Shown here one piece after another: positions 4,118 to 57,417 of a DNA stretch of 64,000 bases. Each line of letters begins with the position of its first letter. Position 1 is the stretch's first letter. The stretch is from Minisyncoccota bacterium (lineage in GTDB: Bacteria > Patescibacteriota > Minisyncoccia > UBA6257 > JAGOQP01). The notes beneath the pieces were generated by a model that saw only the letters and a program-made list of their open reading frames with translations, did not search any database and was not told where the DNA came from. The translations under genes and the position numbers were made by a program. The DNA lies in assembly GCA_041661795.1 (NCBI GenBank), contig JBAZTS010000002.1, positions 36,263 through 100,262 of the forward strand. Reading direction: 5' to 3'.

Positions 4118-5374
4118 ATGAAATTTATAGTAAACGGTAATAAAAAACTCAACGGGAACGTTGATATTAAGGGAGCTAAAAATGCCGCCTTAAAAATAAT
4201 TCCCGCGTCTATTCTGGCTTCTTCTCTTTGTGTTATAAAAAATATTCCACAAATAACCGATATAGAAAAACTTCTGGAAATATTAAAAGGAATAGGGTCA
4301 AAAGTTGAATTTAAAGACGGAGTACTCAAGATAGGTAATAAAGACATTAATTCTTTCCATCCGGATGAAAAATTGGTTAATAAATTCAGAGGATCTATAG
4401 TTCTAATCGGTCCTCTTTTGGCGAGATTTGGCGAGGCAGTTCTTAGTGAACCGGGGGGATGTTTAATTGGTTCAAGACCGATTGATGACCATTTAGATCT
4501 TTTTGAGCAAATGGGAGTTGGTATTGAATATAAGGATAATAAATTTTATTTTCACGGGAAACCAAAAAGCGGTCACATAGTTCTAAAAAAGATGAGTGTT
4601 ACGGCAACTGAAAATGCCATTATGGCGTCAGTTTTTTCCAAGGGTATTACTAAAATTCATATAGCGGCGGCTGAACCGGAAATAAAAGATCTGGCTGATT
4701 TTCTCAATAAAATGGGAGCTAAAATAAAGGGAGCCGGAACCAATGAGATAGAAATAGAAGGAGTGGATGAATTAAAAGGAGCGGAGTATGAAGTTTTGCC
4801 GGACAGAATTGAGATGGGAACATATTTAATAGCCGGTATTTTGACTAACTCGGAAATTACAGTTGGTCCGATTATTTCTTGCCATTCTGACCTGTTTTTT
4901 AAAAAATTAAAGGATGTTGGGGCAAAATTTGAAATAATAGAGAAAGACGGCAAAAAATATGTAAGAACTTTAAAAAGAGGGGATTTAATTCCTCAAAACA
5001 TAGACCCAAGACCATATCCGGGATTTGCCACCGATCTTCAGCCCCAATACGCGGTCTTAATGACTCAGGCCCAAGGCAAAACGGAAATTTTTGATACTAT
5101 GTTTGAAGGAAGATTTAGGTATATTGAGGAATTAAAATTAATGAAGGTTGAAGCCGAAATTTTAAATCCCAATAAAGCCATTATAAATGGTCCCGCTCAT
5201 CTAAAGGGAGCCGAGGTGTCGTGTTTGGATATTAGAGCTGGAGTAGCAGTGGTTCTGGCTTCTCTTATAGCGGAAGGAAAAACAACCATAAATAACATTG
5301 AATTTATAGACAGAGGGTACGAGGATATAGATGGAAAGCTAAGAGAGTTGGGGGCGGATATTAAGAGGGAATAA
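4118..5374 (+). CDS. murA: UDP-N-acetylglucosamine 1-carboxyvinyltransferase
   Basis: 418 aa. N-terminus NGNVDIKGAKNAALKIIPASILA, plus GGCLIGSRPIDDHL and DIRAGVAVVLASLIAEG, are typical of MurA. Confidence 0.95.
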   Translation: MKFIVNGNKKLNGNVDIKGAKNAALKIIPASILASSLCVIKNIPQITDIEKLLEILKGIGSKVEFKDGVLKIGNKDINSFHPDEKLVNKFRGSIVLIGPLLARFGEAVLSEPGGCLIGSRPIDDHLDLFEQMGVGIEYKDNKFYFHGKPKSGHIVLKKMSVTATENAIMASVFSKGITKIHIAAAEPEIKDLADFLNKMGAKIKGAGTNEIEIEGVDELKGAEYEVLPDRIEMGTYLIAGILTNSEITVGPIISCHSDLFFKKLKDVGAKFEIIEKDGKKYVRTLKRGDLIPQNIDPRPYPGFATDLQPQYAVLMTQAQGKTEIFDTMFEGRFRYIEELKLMKVEAEILNPNKAIINGPAHLKGAEVSCLDIRAGVAVVLASLIAEGKTTINNIEFIDRGYEDIDGKLRELGADIKRE

Positions 5375-5378
5375 TAAG

Positions 5379-5990
5379 ATGATTGAATTAGTATTATCTT
5401 GGATTGCCAATATTGTCATAGTAATTATTAACTCTACTGGTTATTTGGGGATTTTTTTGTTAATGGCTTTAGAAAGCGCTAATATTCCAGTGCCTTCGGA
5501 AATTATTATGCCCTTTTCAGGATTTTTGGTTTTTGGGGGAAATTTTAGTTTTTGGTTAGTGGTTTTAGCAGGAACATTTGGAAATCTTTTTGGTTCTCTG
5601 GTTTCTTTCCGGTTTGCCGAGTGGATAGTGGCTAGTCGTTCCAAATTTAAATTAATATCCCATATTTTTTCAGAAAAGTTTTTGTACAAATCTCATGTTT
5701 GGTTTGAGAAGTATGGCTATTGGTCAGTATTTTTTTCCCGTCTCTTACCGGTAGCAAGGACTTTTATTTCTCTCCCAGCCGGATTGGCAAAAATGAACAT
5801 ATGGAAATTTTCCATACTAACTCTTTTCGGGTCGTTTATCTGGTCTTGGATTTTAACTTACATTGGCTTATTTTTAGGGGTTAATTGGCACACTTTGGGT
5901 AAATATTTCAGACAACTTGATTTATTGATATTAGTGATTGTACTTATTCTATTTTTTTGGTGGCTTTATAATCACAATAAACGACACTAA
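5379..5990 (+). CDS. DedA family membrane protein
   Basis: YLGIFLLMALESANIPVPSEIIMPFSGFLV and RLLPVARTFISLPAG motifs. Confidence 0.85.
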   Translation: MIELVLSWIANIVIVIINSTGYLGIFLLMALESANIPVPSEIIMPFSGFLVFGGNFSFWLVVLAGTFGNLFGSLVSFRFAEWIVASRSKFKLISHIFSEKFLYKSHVWFEKYGYWSVFFSRLLPVARTFISLPAGLAKMNIWKFSILTLFGSFIWSWILTYIGLFLGVNWHTLGKYFRQLDLLILVIVLILFFWWLYNHNKRH

Positions 5991-6043
5991 TGCTCGTGTC
6001 TAAACACCTTTTTTAAAACGATTCTTTCTGGTAAAATTAATAC

Positions 6044-6769
6044 ATGTCTAAATTGGTGGTTTTAAATTGGAAGATGAATTTGCCCGATCTGCCGTCTTGG
6101 AGTGAAGCTTTGAAATTTAAAGGGAATAATAGAATTGTAGTTTGTCCTTCTTTCACTCATATAAATAAGCTAAGGAATTTATTAAAAGGAAAGGGGATAT
6201 ATATTGGGGCCCAAAACGTTTCTTATAAAGAAAATGGAGCTTTGACTGGAGAGGTGTCGGTTGAGATGTTAAAAGATGTCGGCGCTTCATATGCAATTAT
6301 AGGACATTCTGAAAGAAGATATGTTTTTGGAGAAACCGATGAAATTATAGCTAAGAAAGCAAAAGTTGTTCTTGAAGGCAGAATTACTCCTATTCTTTGT
6401 GTGGGAGAAACAAAGAAAATGACTAGAGAAAAATCCTGGAATTTTATCCGCTCTCAACTTCAAAAAGACTTATCTCTTACCCCTTACCCCTTACCCCTTA
6501 CCACTAGTTTAGTTGTGGCTTACGAGCCGGTCTGGTCTATTGGGGGAAATAAAAATATTGATGCGTCACATTCGGCTCATCTAATCGACAGAATAAGAGA
6601 GTTTCTATATACTAACTACAAGATGCGAGCCACCATCTTATACGGCGGAAGTGTTAATAGTAAAAATATTAAATCGCTTTTGTCTGTTGGTGAAATTGAC
6701 GGATTTTTGGTCGGGTCCGCCAGTTTAAAAAAAGAAGAAGTTAAAAAATTATTAAAATTAATAAATTAA
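6044..6769 (+). CDS. tpiA: Triosephosphate isomerase (carries an in-frame CCCCTTA x3 repeat)
   Basis: NWKMN, IIGHSERR, AYEPVWSIG and YGGSV motifs. The extra LTPYPLPLTT segment is encoded by the 6476-6502 tandem repeat. Confidence 0.9.
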   Translation: MSKLVVLNWKMNLPDLPSWSEALKFKGNNRIVVCPSFTHINKLRNLLKGKGIYIGAQNVSYKENGALTGEVSVEMLKDVGASYAIIGHSERRYVFGETDEIIAKKAKVVLEGRITPILCVGETKKMTREKSWNFIRSQLQKDLSLTPYPLPLTTSLVVAYEPVWSIGGNKNIDASHSAHLIDRIREFLYTNYKMRATILYGGSVNSKNIKSLLSVGEIDGFLVGSASLKKEEVKKLLKLIN

Positions 6770-6773
6770 TAAA

Positions 6774-7553
6774 ATGAACGAACAATCAAAAAATTCTCTT
6801 TTCGGAGCGCTAACTTTATTTGTCTTGGTTCTCACTGTTATTTTTGTTTATTCAATTTTTTGGGGACCTCTTCACAGATATTCTCAATCTTTAATCTCCC
6901 CAAGAACAATGGCGGTTTCGGCCTCGGATAAAGTAACCGTAAAACCGGATATAGCCAATTTATCTTTTTCGGTGATTACCGAGGGGATGGATACAGCCAA
7001 AGTTGTTGATGAAAACAATAAAAAAATAAATTTAGCCATAGATATTATTAAACAAGAAGGAGTAAGCGAGGAGGATATAAGAACATCAGAATACAATCTT
7101 TCTCCCGTTTATACCTATCCTACCAGGAGCTCTTCTGGCGAGTTTGTCCCAAAAATTGCCAAGTATACTCTGACCCAGTCGGTTTCTTTAAAAATCAGGG
7201 ATTTTACAAAAATCTCTGTTGTTTTACAAAAACTTCCGGCGCTTGGTATAAACAAGATTGAAAATATCTATTTTAGCATTGATGATCCAGATATATTTCT
7301 TTCCAGTGCTAGAGAAGGAGCTTTTAAAAAGGCCTTTGAGAAAGCGGATAAAATGGCCAGACAAAACGGAGTTAGCTTGGGAAGAGTCGTAAGCATTTCG
7401 GATTATTCCAATAACTATTATCCTACCTATGAAAAATATGGAATGGGAGGGGATATGATGTCGTCTTCTGCGTCACCCATCAGCGCTCCTGATATTCAGC
7501 CGGGAAGCAAGGAGTTGACTGTTAATGTTAGTGTCGTTTATGAAATCAAATAG
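6774..7553 (+). CDS. SIMPL/DUF541 family secreted protein
   Basis: N-terminal TM/signal segment. KVTVKPDIANLSFSVITEG and the C-terminal GSKELTVNVSVVYEI pattern are typical of 26-kDa periplasmic SIMPL proteins. Confidence 0.75.
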   Translation: MNEQSKNSLFGALTLFVLVLTVIFVYSIFWGPLHRYSQSLISPRTMAVSASDKVTVKPDIANLSFSVITEGMDTAKVVDENNKKINLAIDIIKQEGVSEEDIRTSEYNLSPVYTYPTRSSSGEFVPKIAKYTLTQSVSLKIRDFTKISVVLQKLPALGINKIENIYFSIDDPDIFLSSAREGAFKKAFEKADKMARQNGVSLGRVVSISDYSNNYYPTYEKYGMGGDMMSSSASPISAPDIQPGSKELTVNVSVVYEIK

Positions 7554-16012: not shown

Positions 16013-18334
16013 ATGTTAAGCGACAATATACGCAATTTTTGTATTATAGCCCACATAGATCACGGCAAATCTACATTGGCTGATAGGTTGCTTGAAATTA
16101 CAGGAACTATAGATAAGAGGAAGATGAAGAACCAATATCTTGATCAATTGGAATTGGAAAGAGAAAGAGGGATAACTATCAAAATGGCTCCTGTCCGCAT
16201 GCTCTATGCGCTGACTAACGCCGACTCTACGCCGACTGACGCAGACAATAAGAAATTAGATAATGCGAGTAGTCAATTATTGTATGAAGATTTAACCTAT
16301 AAAATAAGAGGAGTGTTGTTTGGCGTAAAGAAAAAAATAGGACTTGGTCATAAAGAAGTTATTTACCAAAAGGCCATAGAAGAAGAATTGACAAAAGAGA
16401 ACATACCTTTTGAAAAAGAAAAAATAATTAATATAGAACTTGATAATAAAAGTCTTGGCGTATACAGACCAGATTTTGTTATTGATAATAAAATTATATT
16501 AGAGATAAAATCTTTGCCTTTTATTGGAGATGTTGAGAAAAGGCAAGTTTGGACATATCTTAAGGGATCAGAATATAAATTGGCTTTATTAGTCAATTTC
16601 AATTCTAGAGATATTGATATTAAAAGAGTTGTGTATGATACAGCCAGAGAAATTCAGCGTGAGTCAGCGTTTAGTCAGCGTAAGTCGGCGCAGGTTGAGC
16701 AGTATGTGCTCAACCTGATAGACACTCCCGGGCATCCGGATTTTGGTTATGAAGTTTCCAGAGCTTTGGAAGCGGTTGAGGGGGCAATTTTGTTGGTTGA
16801 TGGAATGCAAGGAATACAAGCACAAACGTTATCTAATTTTTATGCTGCCAAAAAAGCCGGACTTACAATTATTGGCGCGGTTAACAAAGTGGATTTAAAT
16901 ATTCCTGACATAGATAAAGTTGTAATGGAAACAGCGGAGCTAATTGGTTGTGGGCCAGAACAAATTCATAAAATATCAGGAAGAACAGGAGAGGGAGTTC
17001 AACAGCTTTTGGGAGCAGTTATTCTTAGAATCCTACCTCCAAAAGCTGTAATTCCCAATTTCCAATTCCCAATTTCCAATTTTGGAAGGGCATTAATATT
17101 TGATTCTTTTTATGACGACCACAAAGGAATTATAGCCAGTGTCAGGGTATTTAATGGAGAATTTAATCAGTTTGATGATGTGGTTTTGGTGGCTGCTAAA
17201 GAAAAATTTAAAACAAAAGAAGTCGGATATTTTTCTCCGACCCTAAATCCTTCAAAAAGAATTTTAGAGGGAGAGATAGGTTATTTGGTTACCGGGATAA
17301 GAGACCCGTATAAAATAAAAATCGGTGACACGGTAATAGGTCACAAATCACAAGTCGCGCATCACGAATCGTATGCTTTGCCCGGATACAAAGAACCAAA
17401 GCCGGTGGTGTTTGTTTCTTTCTATCCAGACAATCCGGATGAATATGATGATTTAAAAAAATCTTTGGAAAGATTAAAGCTTAACGACTCTTCTTTTGCT
17501 TTTGAGCCGGATTTAAATGAAGTGTTGGGCAGGGGATTTAAAGGAGGATTTTTGGGAAAGCTTCATTTTGAAATAATTTCTCAGCGTCTTGAAAGAGAGT
17601 TTGGAATAAAAACAATCACATCTTTTCCTTCGGTCAGTTATAAAATAAAAACTTCTTCCAAACACTTAGCTCATCTAAAATTGGACGAAGATGGATTTTT
17701 CATAGCGTATAATCCCAAAGATATTCCTGAAGAATTTGAAAAGATATTAGAACCGATGATAAAAGTTGAAATTGTTTCATCACAAAAAATATTGGGAACA
17801 GTTTTGGGACTTAAAGATGCTTTTCGTTGGGAATACATAGAGACCCAACAATTGGGAGAAAAAGTTATTATTAAAACCAGAATGCCCTTGGCTGAGCTTA
17901 TCTCGGATTTTGACGACCAGTTAAAATCGGTTTCAGGTGGATTTGCTTCTTTTAGTTATGAAGAAGACGGCTATCAACAGGGCGATTTAATTAGGATGGA
18001 TATTTTAGTGGCAGACGAAATAGTTCCTGGGCTTTCTAGAATTCTTCCCAAAAAAGACATAGAATATCCGGCCAGGAAAATGGTTGTTCGCTTAAAGGAA
18101 GTATTGCCTCATCAGCAATTTACCCAAGCTATTCAAGCCAAAGTCGGAGGGAGAATTATAGCCAGAGAAACTATTGCGGCTTTAAGAAAAGATGTGACCG
18201 GATATCTTTATGGAGGAGACAGAACAAGAAAAATGAAACTTTGGAAAAAACAGCAAAGAGGCAAAAAGAAACTTCTTTCTATGGCCAAAGTGACCATATC
18301 TCCAGAAAACTTCAAGAAACTTCTTTCAAAATAA
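16013..18334 (+). CDS. lepA: Elongation factor 4 (LepA) interrupted in frame by a 162-codon nuclease cassette
   Basis: IIAHIDHGKSTLADRLL, RERGITIK, LIDTPGHPDF, NKVD and the C-terminal LepA domain (YGGDRTRKMKLWKKQQRGKKK). 773 aa versus about 600 aa for canonical LepA. Confidence 0.95.
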   Translation: MLSDNIRNFCIIAHIDHGKSTLADRLLEITGTIDKRKMKNQYLDQLELERERGITIKMAPVRMLYALTNADSTPTDADNKKLDNASSQLLYEDLTYKIRGVLFGVKKKIGLGHKEVIYQKAIEEELTKENIPFEKEKIINIELDNKSLGVYRPDFVIDNKIILEIKSLPFIGDVEKRQVWTYLKGSEYKLALLVNFNSRDIDIKRVVYDTAREIQRESAFSQRKSAQVEQYVLNLIDTPGHPDFGYEVSRALEAVEGAILLVDGMQGIQAQTLSNFYAAKKAGLTIIGAVNKVDLNIPDIDKVVMETAELIGCGPEQIHKISGRTGEGVQQLLGAVILRILPPKAVIPNFQFPISNFGRALIFDSFYDDHKGIIASVRVFNGEFNQFDDVVLVAAKEKFKTKEVGYFSPTLNPSKRILEGEIGYLVTGIRDPYKIKIGDTVIGHKSQVAHHESYALPGYKEPKPVVFVSFYPDNPDEYDDLKKSLERLKLNDSSFAFEPDLNEVLGRGFKGGFLGKLHFEIISQRLEREFGIKTITSFPSVSYKIKTSSKHLAHLKLDEDGFFIAYNPKDIPEEFEKILEPMIKVEIVSSQKILGTVLGLKDAFRWEYIETQQLGEKVIIKTRMPLAELISDFDDQLKSVSGGFASFSYEEDGYQQGDLIRMDILVADEIVPGLSRILPKKDIEYPARKMVVRLKEVLPHQQFTQAIQAKVGGRIIARETIAALRKDVTGYLYGGDRTRKMKLWKKQQRGKKKLLSMAKVTISPENFKKLLSK
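16208..16693 (+). mobile_element. In-frame cassette encoding a GxxExxY / PD-(D/E)XK nuclease domain, flanked by imperfect inverted word-repeat arms
   Basis: Arms 16208-16246 (gcgctgactaacgccgactctacgccgactgacgcagac) and 16655-16693 (cagcgtgagtcagcgtttagtcagcgtaagtcggcgcag) are about 80% complementary. Cargo carries GHKEVIY and PDFVI...LEIK. No stop and no in-frame ATG. Confidence 0.7.
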
Positions 18335-19477: not shown

Positions 19478-20668
19478 ATGAAATATCTTAGAAATGTCAA
19501 AATAGAAAAGATAAGAAACAAAACCTGCGTTTTAAGGTTGGGTTTGGATATAAAGGATGGTGAGTTAAAAAATTCGTTGAGAGTTATAAAATCTATCCCG
19601 ACACTCAAATTTCTATTAAAAAACGACTGCAAAGTAGTGATAATTTCACATCGAGGTAGACCTCAAGAGGGGAAAGAGGAAAGTGAAAAGAGGAAAGTGA
19701 AAAGAGAAGAAACTTTAAGATCATTTGTGGAGATTTTTGAAAAACTACTAAAAACAAAGATTAGTTTTGATGACTCTTTTGATTTTAAAAAGATGAGTGA
19801 AAAGATTAAAAAACTTCACTCAAAATCTATAGTTATTGTTGAAAATATAAGATTAGTAAAAGGAGAAAAGGATGATAACGATAAGCTAGGGAGAGAATTG
19901 GCTTCTTTGGGAAATTTTTATGTGAATGATGATTTTTCTACCAGTCACAGAAAAAACGCTTCTTTATGTGCGATAACAAAATTCACACCTTCTTATGTTG
20001 GCCTGCAGTTTGAAGAAGAAATAAAGAATTTAGACAAAGTTCTTAAAAATCAAAGGAAGCCAGTTGTTCTGATTGTAGGGGGAGTTAAATTGTCGGACAA
20101 AGTTGGCGTAATAAAAAATTTCTTAAACAAGGCAGATTATGTTTTGACCGGTGGGGGAGTTTCCAATACTTTCTTTGCTGCTAAAGAAATTCCAGTTGGT
20201 GATTCGTTAATTGATAAAGAAATGATGAAAATGGCAAAAACCTTACTTAAATCAAAAAAAATCATTTTACCCCAAGACGTTAGGATAAAAGGAAAATCTA
20301 TATTGGATATAGGGGATAAAACCATTGAAGAATATAAAAAAATAATAGAAAAAGCAGGGACTATTATTTGGGGTGGACCGTTAGGATATTTTGAGGACAA
20401 AAAATTTGCCAAAGGAACATTTGAAATAGCCAGAGCGATTTTAAAATCAAAAGCTTTTTGTGTTATTGGCGGCGGAGAAACTACAGTCGCCTTTCTTAAG
20501 GCAACTCGCGGACTTACACGGACTTCACGCAGAACTACGCGGAAAACAGTCAGCGTCAGTCAGCGTTCAGTCGGCGTTGGTCAGCGCTTGTTTCTGTCTA
20601 CTGGTGGAGGGGCAATGTTGGAATATCTAGCAGGTAAAAAATTACCGGCTTTGGAAGCGCTTAAATAA
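19478..20668 (+). CDS. pgk: Phosphoglycerate kinase (two in-frame repeat insertions)
   Basis: ISHRGRP, NIRL, VNDDFSTSHR, GGVKLSDK and LSTGGGAMLEYLAGKKLPALEAL. Extra segments are encoded at 19687-19714 and 20504-20587. Confidence 0.93.
   Translation: MKYLRNVKIEKIRNKTCVLRLGLDIKDGELKNSLRVIKSIPTLKFLLKNDCKVVIISHRGRPQEGKEESEKRKVKREETLRSFVEIFEKLLKTKISFDDSFDFKKMSEKIKKLHSKSIVIVENIRLVKGEKDDNDKLGRELASLGNFYVNDDFSTSHRKNASLCAITKFTPSYVGLQFEEEIKNLDKVLKNQRKPVVLIVGGVKLSDKVGVIKNFLNKADYVLTGGGVSNTFFAAKEIPVGDSLIDKEMMKMAKTLLKSKKIILPQDVRIKGKSILDIGDKTIEEYKKIIEKAGTIIWGGPLGYFEDKKFAKGTFEIARAILKSKAFCVIGGGETTVAFLKATRGLTRTSRRTTRKTVSVSQRSVGVGQRLFLSTGGGAMLEYLAGKKLPALEALK
20504..20587 (+). repeat. 84-nt in-frame insertion in pgk made of reverse-complementary 10-nt words (empty version of the lepA cassette arms)
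   Basis: Left words are gacttacacg gacttcacgc agaactacgc. The spacer is ggaaaac. Right words are agtcagcgtc agtcagcgtt cagtcggcgt. It encodes TRGLTRTSRRTTRKTVSVSQRSVGVGQR just before the conserved STGGG. Confidence 0.7.
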
Positions 20669-22030: not shown

Positions 22031-22073
22031 TTTTAGCTTTGACTTTTTCGATGTTGAGTTGTATTATCTTAAA

Positions 22074-22424
22074 AGATAAGTGAGTGATTGCCCTGACATT
22101 TGTTGGGGAGGAAAGTCCGGACTCCCATCTCCGACGTAACGTCGGAGTAAACGTATTCGCTAACAGCGAACTATCGCAAGATAAGAGGTGCGAACAGAGA
22201 CGAGTCCTAATGGAAACATTAGGGGTGAAACGGTCCCGACGCCTATTTCGGGTTAGGGACTCCGACATCCGCAAGGATCGTCGGAGCTAAATCCTTGCGG
22301 GGTGCAAGACCGTATCCGCCCAGGGCGGGTGAGTCGCTTGAACCTGAGAGTAATTGAAGGTCCAGACAAATAATCACTATCCCGACGTAACGTCGGGACA
22401 CAGAATCCGGCTTATAGCTTATCT
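22074..22424 (+). ncRNA. rnpB: RNase P RNA (bacterial type A)
   Basis: GGAGGAAAGTCCGGACTCC near the 5' end and ACAGAATCCGGCTTA near the 3' end. P1 pairs agataag with cttatct. GC-rich island followed by a terminator. Confidence 0.9.
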
Positions 22425-22506
22425 AAACATATCAAGAATCTCTCCTTAACGGGGGGATTTTTGATTGATTTATTAAGGGTTTTTTGATACTTTTAACAAG
22501 TTGCTT

Positions 22507-49698: not shown

Positions 49699-49926
49699 AT
49701 GGCTAGAAGAAAACCGGCAAGATCGATAACCATAGATAGGATGACAAGGATGATTTGCGGAGTGCTGATTCCGTCAATTATCCTTCCTCGACTACAAGAG
49801 GCGGAAGACATCGCCCTTCGGACTCTGGGGGCTTTAGGAAAGTCCCAGAGTGAAGCTCGTCATCTTTTCTGGGTGGCTATTGAGACACTCGCCAAGAGTG
49901 AGCAGATTTCCAACGGCACGCAATAG
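49699..49926 (+). CDS. GC-rich 75-aa hypothetical protein (compositionally foreign island E)
   Basis: AAGGGGGA lies 6 nt upstream of the ATG. A GC-clamped terminator (aggcgcggaac-ttg-ttccgcgcct) follows. The sequence is visibly more GC-rich than its flanks. Confidence 0.45.
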   Translation: MARRKPARSITIDRMTRMICGVLIPSIILPRLQEAEDIALRTLGALGKSQSEARHLFWVAIETLAKSEQISNGTQ

Positions 49927-49975
49927 ACAGCTCTTTCCAACTATAGGCGCGGAACTTGTTCCGCGCCTTCTGCAT

Positions 49976-51133
<1,158 letters not shown>

Positions 51134-55467: not shown

Positions 55468-56607
55468 TTAATCGGTATATGTCCGTGACCGACGTAGTCG
55501 GTGGTATCGTATAGCAAATCTGTGGGCTTCGTTTCTTAACGAAAGTAATGTATTTTTAACATCTTCGGGGATTTGGCTCAAGCTGATAGGGGATTTTGAA
55601 TAGGGACTGTAAATCAATCCTTTTGTTTGTGATCTTTTATATTTCTTGCCAACATCGTTAATTAACTTACCATTACAATTAGAACGATCGTTGTAATTGT
55701 AATGGTGTGGATTATTACCCACAGATTGCAATTTGCCCACGTTTAGTTTTGCTAGAGCTATCATCGGAATCTTAATTGTTTTGAGTTGTGAGATTTGTGA
55801 TTTTCCTCCGTCAATGATAATTAAATCCGGATATTTCCATTCTTTGTGGTTAAGGCGTCTTTCTATAATTTCTTTTATTGAAGCCGGGTCATTGGCTCCT
55901 TTTATCGTTTTTATTTTAAATTTTCTGTAAAGATTTTTATTAGGTTTATTTCCGATAAACGTTACCATTGAGCCAACTGACAAACTACCTTGGGTATTGG
56001 AAATGTCGTAGCACTCAATATGTGTTTTTTCTCCATTATATAAACGAAGAAAAGTTTTTAATCCATTAACCACCTGGATGTATTTTTTTACTTCGATATT
56101 ATGAGCGGAACATAACCCTAAGTGATAATACAAGCACGGCTTTTCCGGTTTATTTTTACATGTGCGATAGGGGAATATTCTTCTGATTATCAATAAGAGA
56201 TGCTTAATCTCTTTTGCGTCTACAAACGGGCCAACAAAATCGGCTTTAAATTTTTTTGTTTGGTGTGTTAAAAGCACTCTGGGGTACTTTTCGTCGGTAA
56301 AAGCTATATACAAAAAATCCTTGTCATCTTTAAGTTCAATGTTATATTTTGGCTGATACTGTCTAACTAATTTTCTTTCTAAAATCAAGGCGTCTTTTTC
56401 AGATGGGGTTTCTATAAAATCTAAGTCAGCTACTTGTTTGTAAAAATTAATAGAAGCATTCTCTTGTCTAGAAAAATGCGATTCTATTCTCTTTTTTATA
56501 TTAATAGCTTTTCCGATATACAAAATCTTCTCATTCTTATCTTTGAAAATATATACTCCCGGTTTCTTAGGAAGTGCTTTTATCTTATTCTTCAGGATTG
56601 TTTTCAC
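55468..56607 (-). CDS. uvrC: UvrC-like excinuclease subunit, short form (GIY-YIG plus RNase-H-like endonuclease region; no UVR or HhH2 domains seen)
   Basis: PGVYIFKDKNEKILYIGKAINIKKR (GIY-YIG), IECYDISNTQG, PDLIIIDGGKSQ, IALAK and RNEAHRFAI. 379 aa versus about 600 aa canonically. Contains the palindrome at 55669-55706 in frame. Confidence 0.8.
   Translation of the reverse strand: MKTILKNKIKALPKKPGVYIFKDKNEKILYIGKAINIKKRIESHFSRQENASINFYKQVADLDFIETPSEKDALILERKLVRQYQPKYNIELKDDKDFLYIAFTDEKYPRVLLTHQTKKFKADFVGPFVDAKEIKHLLLIIRRIFPYRTCKNKPEKPCLYYHLGLCSAHNIEVKKYIQVVNGLKTFLRLYNGEKTHIECYDISNTQGSLSVGSMVTFIGNKPNKNLYRKFKIKTIKGANDPASIKEIIERRLNHKEWKYPDLIIIDGGKSQISQLKTIKIPMIALAKLNVGKLQSVGNNPHHYNYNDRSNCNGKLINDVGKKYKRSQTKGLIYSPYSKSPISLSQIPEDVKNTLLSLRNEAHRFAIRYHRLRRSRTYTD
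55669..55706. repeat. Palindromic element copy a (inside uvrC, in frame)
   Basis: accattacaattagaacgatcgttgtaattgtaatggt. On the minus strand it encodes part of NNPHHYNYNDRSNCNGKL. Confidence 0.85.
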
Positions 56608-56644: not shown

Positions 56645-56682
56645 ACCATTACATTTAGAACGATCGTTCTAAATGTAATGGT
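56645..56682. repeat. Palindromic element copy b
   Basis: accattacatttagaacgatcgttctaaatgtaatggt is a perfect 38-nt palindrome. It ends 2 nt from the stop of the 56685-57245 gene. Confidence 0.9.
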
Positions 56683-57269: not shown

Positions 57270-57306
57270 ACCATTACAATTAGAACGATCGTTCTAATTG
57301 TAATGG
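57270..57306. repeat. Palindromic element copy c
   Basis: accattacaattagaacgatcgttctaattgtaatgg lies 24 nt upstream of the 56685-57245 gene start. Confidence 0.9.
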
Positions 57307-57417
57307 AGGGAGTATATATGATTAAGAATATTAAATAATTATCATAGAGTTATTATGATTATAGATTGATTTTATCGTTTTAATTAAAGAGTGCCTTATA
57401 AATTAGCACGGACCGCT

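Follow-up and report, generated by a model that had tools for sequence, protein, structure and literature searches.

We describe a block of 80 nt that lies in frame within the phosphoglycerate kinase gene (pgk) in a stretch of DNA from a Minisyncoccota bacterium (the window, by which we mean the whole 64,000 nt analysed), and we suggest that it is probably a cargo-less copy, resembling either a miniature inverted-repeat transposable element (MITE) or a Rickettsia palindromic element (RPE), of a palindromic mobile element family present in many lineages of Patescibacteria (candidate phyla radiation, CPR). The block has a defined anatomy of two inverted arms of four short words each, belongs to a repeat family, is related through its arms to a nuclease-bearing cassette in lepA of the same window, and is crossed from end to end by the open reading frame (ORF) of its host. 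Across genomes the pgk loop concerned is polymorphic for presence and absence of the element, and lepA and recG each have a site that is occupied by the cargo form in some genomes and by a solo hairpin in others.

The window is AT-rich (GC content 0.36), and its pgk product is identical to P0001, given by its source as the phosphoglycerate kinase of 'MAG: Candidatus Paceibacterota bacterium' (MAG, metagenome-assembled genome). A sequence-only reading of this DNA had located the block within pgk with the right coordinates but had counted three plus three words in 84 nt, where we find four plus four words in 80 nt around a 6-nt loop:

19478..20668, + strand: pgk, phosphoglycerate kinase ORF and host of the element (396 aa; full-length PF00162 match, E 1e-92)
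20485..20506, + strand: small 5' hairpin (agtcgcc / ggcaact region), a predicted stem directly upstream of the pgk element
20507..20586, + strand: the whole pgk palindromic element, 80 nt, 4+4 words
20507..20543, + strand: left arm, 37 nt, four words at spacing 10/11/10
20544..20549, + strand: loop aaacag between the arms, 6 nt
20550..20586, + strand: right arm, 37 nt, four words at spacing 10/11/10

The left-arm cores (general core CGCnGA) start at 20507 (CGCGGA), 20517 (CACGGA), 20528 (CGCAGA) and 20538 (CGCGGA), and those of the right arm (general core TCnGCG) at 20550 (TCAGCG), 20560 (TCAGCG), 20571 (TCGGCG) and 20581 (TCAGCG). The element is thus small, with the two 37-nt arms as terminal inverted repeats and no ORF of its own. 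That its halves are reverse-complement-like, as had been read from the letters, holds: 26 of 37 positions pair when G-T is included and 25 of 37 match as reverse complement, and the 80 nt fold into a single long imperfect hairpin of -30.3 kcal/mol (z = -3.7; 1 of 500 dinucleotide shuffles was equal), with z = -3.85 when the 5' hairpin is added. Of the two arms the right is clean and the left degenerate; coding constraint accounts for part of this degeneracy, since a perfect TCAGCG complement would put an in-frame TGA into left cores 1 and 3. GC content within the block is 0.59, against 0.33 in the remainder of pgk, and stop triplets are absent from every frame of its sense strand, whereas the antisense strand has eight.

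The related cassette lies 4.3 kb upstream of the pgk element and is inserted in the G domain of lepA:

16013..18334, + strand: lepA ORF with the cargo form in its G domain (773 aa; Pfam GTP_EFTU, LepA_C and EFG_C, plus PDDEXK_3 at aa 93-206)
16209..16245, + strand: left arm of the lepA cassette, four CGCnGA words
16268..16657, + strand: cargo, a GxxExxY / PDDEXK_3 nuclease domain in the lepA reading frame
16654..16690, + strand: right arm of the lepA cassette, four TCnGCG words

The right arms of the two elements are equal at 31 of 37 bases (84%) and the left arms at 26 of 37, and when the pgk right arm is reverse-complemented, 32 of its 37 positions agree with the lepA left arm, as compared with 25 for the left arm of pgk itself. 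The words are therefore shared, as the sequence-only reading had it, and its proposal that pgk holds a cargo-less form of the lepA element is borne out by the common 37-nt arms of 10/11/10 spacing, as well as by the lepA and recG sites that cargo and solo forms share; its remark that both copies have the same orientation relative to the host gene falls away, orientation being uninformative for a palindrome. Joined via a tetraloop, the lepA arms fold with z = -8.1.

The cargo, a 125-aa ORF, passes the curated cut-offs for TIGR04256 and PF13366 and has its PD-(D/E)XK catalytic residues intact (the family-invariant E, D and E-x-K). In a fold search the matches were to PD-(D/E)XK proteins in general, and none assigned a specific function; comparison of the cargo sequence with solved structures gave no significant match, the sole hit being T7 endonuclease I (E 0.55). 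In the literature (PMC3424549) the function of GxxExxY / PDDEXK_3 proteins is listed as unknown. Around the lepA nuclease there is no splicing module, Pfam showing only PDDEXK_3 between the LepA domains and no Hint/intein domain, and for this reason the insert appears to stay in the mature protein; Rfam matched no intron in the window. Several GxxExxY hits of our protein search are short lepA fragments (181-228 aa) with nuclease and GTPase domains, one of which is named 'GxxExxY protein, partial' by its source. In two comparisons the cargo was 67% and 51% identical where the LepA host was 66% and 47% identical. Greater likeness of cargo than of host, considered as a sign of horizontal transfer, was rejected, as both diverge in parallel; the parallel suggests that the nuclease is under selection and may be a long-term resident.

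In the window AGTCRGCGT is observed seven times against 0.16 expected, all seven within the pgk block or the two lepA arms, and arrays of at least three words are observed three times against 0.14 expected. These counts, far above those of shuffles, already refute the view that the block is low-complexity or chance sequence in a variable loop, unrelated to the lepA arms. Such a view could appeal to the variable length of the loop, to tandem words in some empty alleles (e.g. GTCAAAA four times in L129) and to other short tandem duplications in pgk and lepA of the window, and it is opposed additionally by the contrast in GC content, by the match of the right arm to that of lepA and by a 4+4 architecture stereotyped across the Patescibacteria loci examined; we give it practically no credence.

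Beyond the window, word patterns were scanned over genome and metagenome collections, and the Patescibacteria loci and genome matches discussed here are those listed; the genome of the window is not among the genome matches listed. The metagenome scan returned 58 loci, none with at least 95% identity to the window; because its pattern fixed A at the core centre, centre-base statistics of the right arm are confounded. Among the matches listed, exactly four words make up 61 of 80 arrays, at successive gaps of 10, 11-12 and 10 nt, which is not what would be expected of the ordinary low-complexity words that the sequence-only reading had named as its possible undoing. The solo hairpins among these matches (n = 32) have a modal length of 79-80 nt and loops mostly of 5-7 nt, and 23 of the 32 lie within ORFs of at least 250 aa. 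A search of viral contigs (2.9 million) with a three-word pattern gave only 4 matches.

The window copy is 80-82% identical to copies in genes for a cysteine desulfurase-type class V aminotransferase, PolX and lepA, the flanks being unrelated, and 80% identical to a copy in a CCA-adding enzyme gene, while pheT holds a further copy of the same family. Hosts confirmed by Pfam are RluA-type pseudouridine synthase, PolX, TsaD, PheT, CCA-adding enzyme or poly(A) polymerase, and class V aminotransferase; recG, uvrA, uvrB, valS, leuS and ppsA were identified by eye, and family copies were also found in intergenic regions, in 16S and 23S rRNA genes and in RNase P RNA. The mobility that the sequence-only reading had proposed is upheld by these copies of ~80% identity in unrelated genes and genomes, by the patchy distribution of the insert on the PGK tree and by filled and empty alleles that are 93% identical in DNA. 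Two elements are present in the 64-kb window, and other single loci carry 3-5 (e.g. L104, L164).

Two of the RNA genes hold several copies each. In L055 (a Jorgensenbacteria MAG, 4181-7331) the 16S rRNA gene is 3151 nt long and has at least four word arrays; the arms at 5990-6026 and 6282-6318 flank a group I intron (6074-6283), which indicates that arms can enclose cargo other than the nuclease. In L104 (a Saccharibacteria MAG, 6755-7393) the RNase P RNA measures 639 nt rather than ~370, its greater length being due to three solo hairpins of 80-83 nt inside it, one at the P12 tip and two in variable regions; the RNase P RNA of the window (22072-22430) has no hairpin copy.

Considering word periodicity and mirror layout, both of which would be expected from addition at two ends, it could be argued that the block is a templated repair scar and no transposable unit, a word of ~10 nt having been added repeatedly to both 3' ends of a double-strand break, the extended ends having been joined into an inverted 4+4 array and cargo having been captured later in the loop. 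This would agree with replacement without target-site duplication, with the varying cargo (nuclease ORFs and, in one copy, a group I intron) and with the existence of left-only or right-only half-arrays, which we find in pgk of L124/L129 and at 3' gene ends in L003, L007, L008 and L027. We nevertheless regard a repair scar as unlikely: strict sets of four words at a fixed 10/11/10 across distant lineages are hard to obtain from a processive adder, no candidate enzyme or template was identified, and elements at unrelated loci are ~80% identical over their full length, including the spacers, and this argues for a unit that is copied rather than newly synthesized each time.

The link between cargo and solo forms is further supported by the sites that both occupy. 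Cargo forms with the same arms occur in the window lepA and in L104, L128, L045 and L172, the ORF being a PD-(D/E)XK nuclease and no known transposase. In L128, which has the closest PGK in our search (53% identical), the GxxExxY cassette is at a second lepA site, between GDTI and ALPGYKEP, and has a nuclease 74% identical to the window copy as well as the same AGTCAGCGT words; at this second site L104, L119 and L164 have solo hairpins. L104 also has cargo at the lepA site of the window, and between motifs II and III of recG there is cargo in L045 and a solo hairpin in L086. Free-standing GxxExxY genes with flanking word arms are found in L070, L125 and L128. In the last two, which are related genomes, a free-standing GxxExxY gene (L125, 4229-4627; L128, 4178-4576) stands between pgk and a DHH-family gene, with arms of a different, AT-rich kind (TGCGAAT / ATTAGCA); the corresponding gap of the window is only 5 nt.

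For the pgk site we sampled 120 CPR homologues of PGK and retrieved DNA for seven further filled pgk loci. Counted from GGGET through STGGGA, most of the 120 have 26-30 residues and the window PGK has 49, and the GGGET-to-STGGGA span is 43 residues in the window PGK against 23 in its closest relative, P0002; about one-fifth of the sampled PGKs hold extra residues in the GGGET-STGGG loop. The surplus, put at 28 codons by the sequence-only reading, is on this measure, and on the 66 nt by which a closely related filled and empty allele differ, only ~20-22 codons; the element replaces part of the ancestral loop. All seven other loci (7/7) have the 4+4 architecture in the same loop, in a shared layout of four CGCrGA words, an A-rich loop and four TCnGCG words, with conserved cores and variable spacers. 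The small 5' hairpin is present in most of them and is clearest (9-11 bp) in L121, L122 and L124.

PGKs with an insert are scattered on a neighbour-joining tree. P0005, which is filled, and P0023, which is empty, have proteins 92% identical and genes 93% identical; as P0023 has close relatives that are empty too, the element appears to have been gained recently, through replacement of a tract. In L124 (filled) 114 nt stand between the GGGET and STGGG codons in place of 48 nt in L129 (empty), the small 5' hairpin being part of the tract that differs between filled and empty alleles, and this one pair, from genomes other than that of the window, has no target-site duplication. The flanks AxFQxA and PR-L-F are enriched among filled PGKs (p = 0.0015 in a crude test); the tail PR is, however, encoded by the last word itself, so that co-conversion is suggested mainly by the P0005/P0023 pair.

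The same loop also receives other DNA: P0012/P0021 and P0033/P0044 are PGKs 99.7% identical that differ by an unrelated insert of 18 residues, SRHLFKTNLEGGIPPAAG, from which it appears that the loop is a general hot spot for several kinds of insertion. Elsewhere in pgk of both L124 and L129 there is a left-type array near the 5' end (nt 80-118 of the gene), a mixed array after the GRP motif (nt 200-270) and a right-type array overlapping the stop codon, and half-arrays thus flank conserved host sequence.

With regard to the protein, an AlphaFold2 model of the window PGK keeps the PGK fold (mean pLDDT, the predicted local distance difference test, 92). The helix after GGGET (residues 333-351), part of which (VAFLKAT) is encoded by the hairpin at 20485-20506, extends in the model into the insert, and residues 352-370 have a pLDDT of 47-52. 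We suggest that the element took over part of the surface loop between this helix and the strand before STGGG, and that it would be transcribed and translated along with pgk as residues 344-370, which, judging by the continuity of the ORF, would form a basic loop (8 Arg/Lys and no acidic residue). The element is probably tolerated because a surface loop accepts insertions, because its sense strand has no stop and because the net change in length keeps the frame. As to the earlier argument from a length divisible by three and lack of stops, the sense strand is indeed free of stops; the frame part does not stand, since the element itself is 80 nt long and in-frame survival is a filter (survivorship) and no intrinsic property of the element. 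Any given frame over one arm is open only ~50-60% of the time.

Elsewhere in the PGK model, residues 61-80 (the loop after SHRGRP) have low confidence and correspond to an exact 14-nt tandem duplication at 19673-19706 (AAAGAGGAAAGTGA, 2.4x); lepA of the window has another such duplication at 17050-17081 (AATTCCCAATTTCC, 2.3x), and in other CPR PGKs the post-SHRGRP loop holds word arrays.

Reading phases 0, 1 and 2 of the element are used 4, 8 and 6 times, respectively, and even at the pgk loop the phase varies (0 in the window and L121, 1 in L124 and L125), so that the peptide is not what is conserved; conservation of the segment as peptide in unrelated PGKs, which would have told against the sequence-only reading, is not seen. 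This bears directly on the proposal that the insert is an adaptation of the protein, i.e. that a basic flexible loop was selected (e.g. for binding of RNA, membrane or a partner) and that the palindrome is a by-product. It is true that the extra loop residues in about a fifth of the sampled CPR PGKs are usually rich in Arg, Lys, Asn and Gln, and that in the AlphaFold2 model the preceding helix runs on through part of the insert; yet it is the DNA word array that is conserved, in all three phases and in two of them at the pgk loop, this DNA is also present between genes and in genes for non-coding RNA, two PGKs that are 92% identical as proteins differ in being filled or empty, and the confidence for residues 352-370 is low. 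We therefore hold such an adaptation to be quite improbable.

The nature of the arms can be approached through their pairing. The family word is A-CGCnGA-C, four to each 37-nt arm, at a spacing of about one word per turn of B-DNA. Pairing between arms is 77% and 69% at the positions just outside the core, 28% at the core centre and 24-38% (about chance) in the outer spacers. Covariation as evidence for RNA structure was rejected: in the RNAalifold consensus the covariation term is +1.25 kcal/mol, both sides change in 4 of 24 pairs, and pairing outside the word is about that of chance; pairs rarely vary because the cores are conserved in sequence. With pairing confined to the word, the arms look more like mutually inverted arrays of a recognition motif that leaves its centre free and recurs about once per DNA turn than like a hairpin selected for its stability.

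The same data speak to whether the hairpin is a functional RNA element, in the manner of the intervening sequences (IVSs) of rRNA, with the 4+4 stem recognized in the transcript, e.g. by RNase III, and either excised or controlling the stability or translation of pgk mRNA, the protein reading being incidental. The fold is significant, the same hairpins are found in RNase P RNA and in rRNA genes (16S and 23S), in which they can fold only as extensions of helices, a group I intron of one 16S gene is enclosed by arms, and short unclassified insertions in CPR rRNA lie at sites of RNase III-cleaved IVSs in other bacteria (PMC11270868). Set against this, pairing limited to the word gives no sign of selection on helix stability beyond the motif, compensatory change is almost absent, copies in long genes keep the host frame open where a random frame over one arm would often be closed, none of the 120 homologues has a loop as short as the one that PGK would be left with if the entire block were deleted, and no Rfam family matches the pgk hairpin at the gathering threshold or at E up to 1. 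An RNA function as the reason for the block thus seems to us unlikely.

Known IVSs, those of CPR rRNA genes included, are stem-loops inserted into the rRNA helices of organisms with small genomes, some of them with an ORF, and the survey of CPR rRNA insertions describes short unclassified insertions but no such arms and no copies in protein genes (PMC11270868). The likeness lies in the word arms found in 16S and 23S rRNA genes and RNase P RNA. The pgk copy, however, is located not in a structural RNA helix but within an ORF whose frame is kept, where excision by RNase III would destroy the mRNA, and the known IVS-encoded protein is the four-helix 23S_rRNA_IVP, not GxxExxY (PMC11270868).

As far as can be judged from descriptions, the closest analogue would be the RPEs, with which the present family has in common short palindromic repeats, a reduced genome and in-frame location in unrelated housekeeping ORFs, with which the copies would be translated as fusions. 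The in-frame hosts here are pgk, lepA, PolX, tsaD, pheT, CCA enzyme, class V aminotransferase and pseudouridine synthase, and the modelled PGK retains its fold. RPEs are reportedly also present in RNA genes; they are not known to have an internal periodicity of 10-11-nt words or a nuclease-carrying form. RPEs, which are inserted in frame in many housekeeping ORFs and are predicted to be compatible with the host fold, measure ~150 bp (PMC10969869) and belong to Rickettsia (Alphaproteobacteria), not to CPR, whereas the present arms are strict sets of four CGCnGA words shared with a GxxExxY nuclease cassette.

MITEs are likewise small, dispersed and without coding capacity of their own, have terminal inverted arms in common with a larger ORF-bearing element and can give in-frame fusions. 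The present family differs in that no target-site duplication was seen (one comparison), that the partner ORF is a 125-aa PD-(D/E)XK nuclease and no recognized transposase, and that insertion looks like replacement of a tract between conserved codons. Homing endonucleases of inteins and group I introns resemble the family in several respects: a nuclease ORF at conserved sites (in recG between motifs II and III, in lepA within the G domain), occupation of one site in distant lineages, and filled and empty alleles that differ by a replaced tract including flanks; the lepA insert is, however, without a splicing module, and cleavage specificity is here putative. The GC clusters of yeast mitochondria are GC-rich palindromes that spread in an AT-rich genome and can be in frame in var1; they are organellar, unrelated in sequence, and have neither four-word arms nor nuclease cargo.

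Taking the block as a cargo-less mobile copy, we tentatively propose that the family may spread by nuclease-triggered, homing-like gene conversion. The nuclease, or a host enzyme recognizing word arrays, would make a double-strand break; the break would be repaired by copying the filled allele, with flanking gene sequence carried along; and rare moves to new sites would occur besides such conversion of alleles. Nuclease-triggered copying is favoured because the replaced tract includes flanking pgk sequence, because the same sites are filled in distant lineages and because the nuclease is intact. It is conceivable, and we put it forward with similar reserve, that four-word arms together with the GxxExxY nuclease constitute an undescribed class of homing-type element without a splicing module, which colonizes conserved genes and survives in frame in surface loops of proteins and as helix extensions in rRNA and RNase P, the solo hairpins being footprints or non-autonomous copies.

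Several points weigh against reading the pgk block as a copy of a mobile element that spreads in this way. Its left arm is degenerate, with no more than the 25 of 37 matches to the reverse complement of the right arm (26 with G-T) given above, and its translation is predicted from continuity of the ORF. Movement is indicated indirectly, the sole filled/empty pair being a replacement without target-site duplication. Tolerance of the loop could by itself explain recurrence, given the unrelated inserts entering the same pgk loop (P0012/P0033). Copy number is low, with only the two elements in 64 kb, and both collection scans were made with word patterns, the genome loci being the matches listed only, so that ascertainment may play a part. 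GxxExxY proteins have no recorded function (PMC3424549), binding or cutting of the words by the nuclease is putative, and divergence of the cargo in step with its host would also fit long vertical residence.

Insertions in CPR rRNA are well known; the present data point to a defined and recognizable DNA element that is also in frame in core protein genes, those concerned being pgk, lepA, recG, uvrB, several tRNA-synthetase genes and tsaD, in addition to the rRNA genes and RNase P RNA. In the literature searched we found no description of these elements in CPR. Should it be a homing-type class of its own, some of the lineage-specific insertions that mark proteins and structural RNAs of Patescibacteria would be due to this family; inserts of this kind lengthen CPR proteins and disturb alignments used in annotation and phylogenetics. 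The element links GxxExxY / PDDEXK_3 to a specific DNA motif (CGCnGA four times at 10/11/10), and under the same condition this large protein family would obtain a first function. Finally, the family provides, beside Rickettsia, an independent second case in which palindromic DNA survives within essential genes although the genome is small, and in this case there is a candidate autonomous partner.

Two further palindromes were seen in the window. A perfect single-word hairpin, GGCGCGGAAC-TTG-GTTCCGCGCC, is located at 49947-49973; it is terminator-like, contains the same CGCGGA word and stands between the convergent ORFs 49699-49926 (+ strand) and 49976-51127 (- strand). A second palindrome family, unrelated to the first, consists of the 38-nt ACCATTACAWTTAGAACGATCGTTSTAAWTGTAATGGT, present three times against 0 expected (55669-55706, 56645-56682 and 57270-57307). 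Its copies 2 and 3 are intergenic, and copy 1 is in frame within uvrC (55468-56607, - strand; Pfam GIY-YIG and UvrC_RNaseH_dom), where it is read as HYNYNDRSNCNG.

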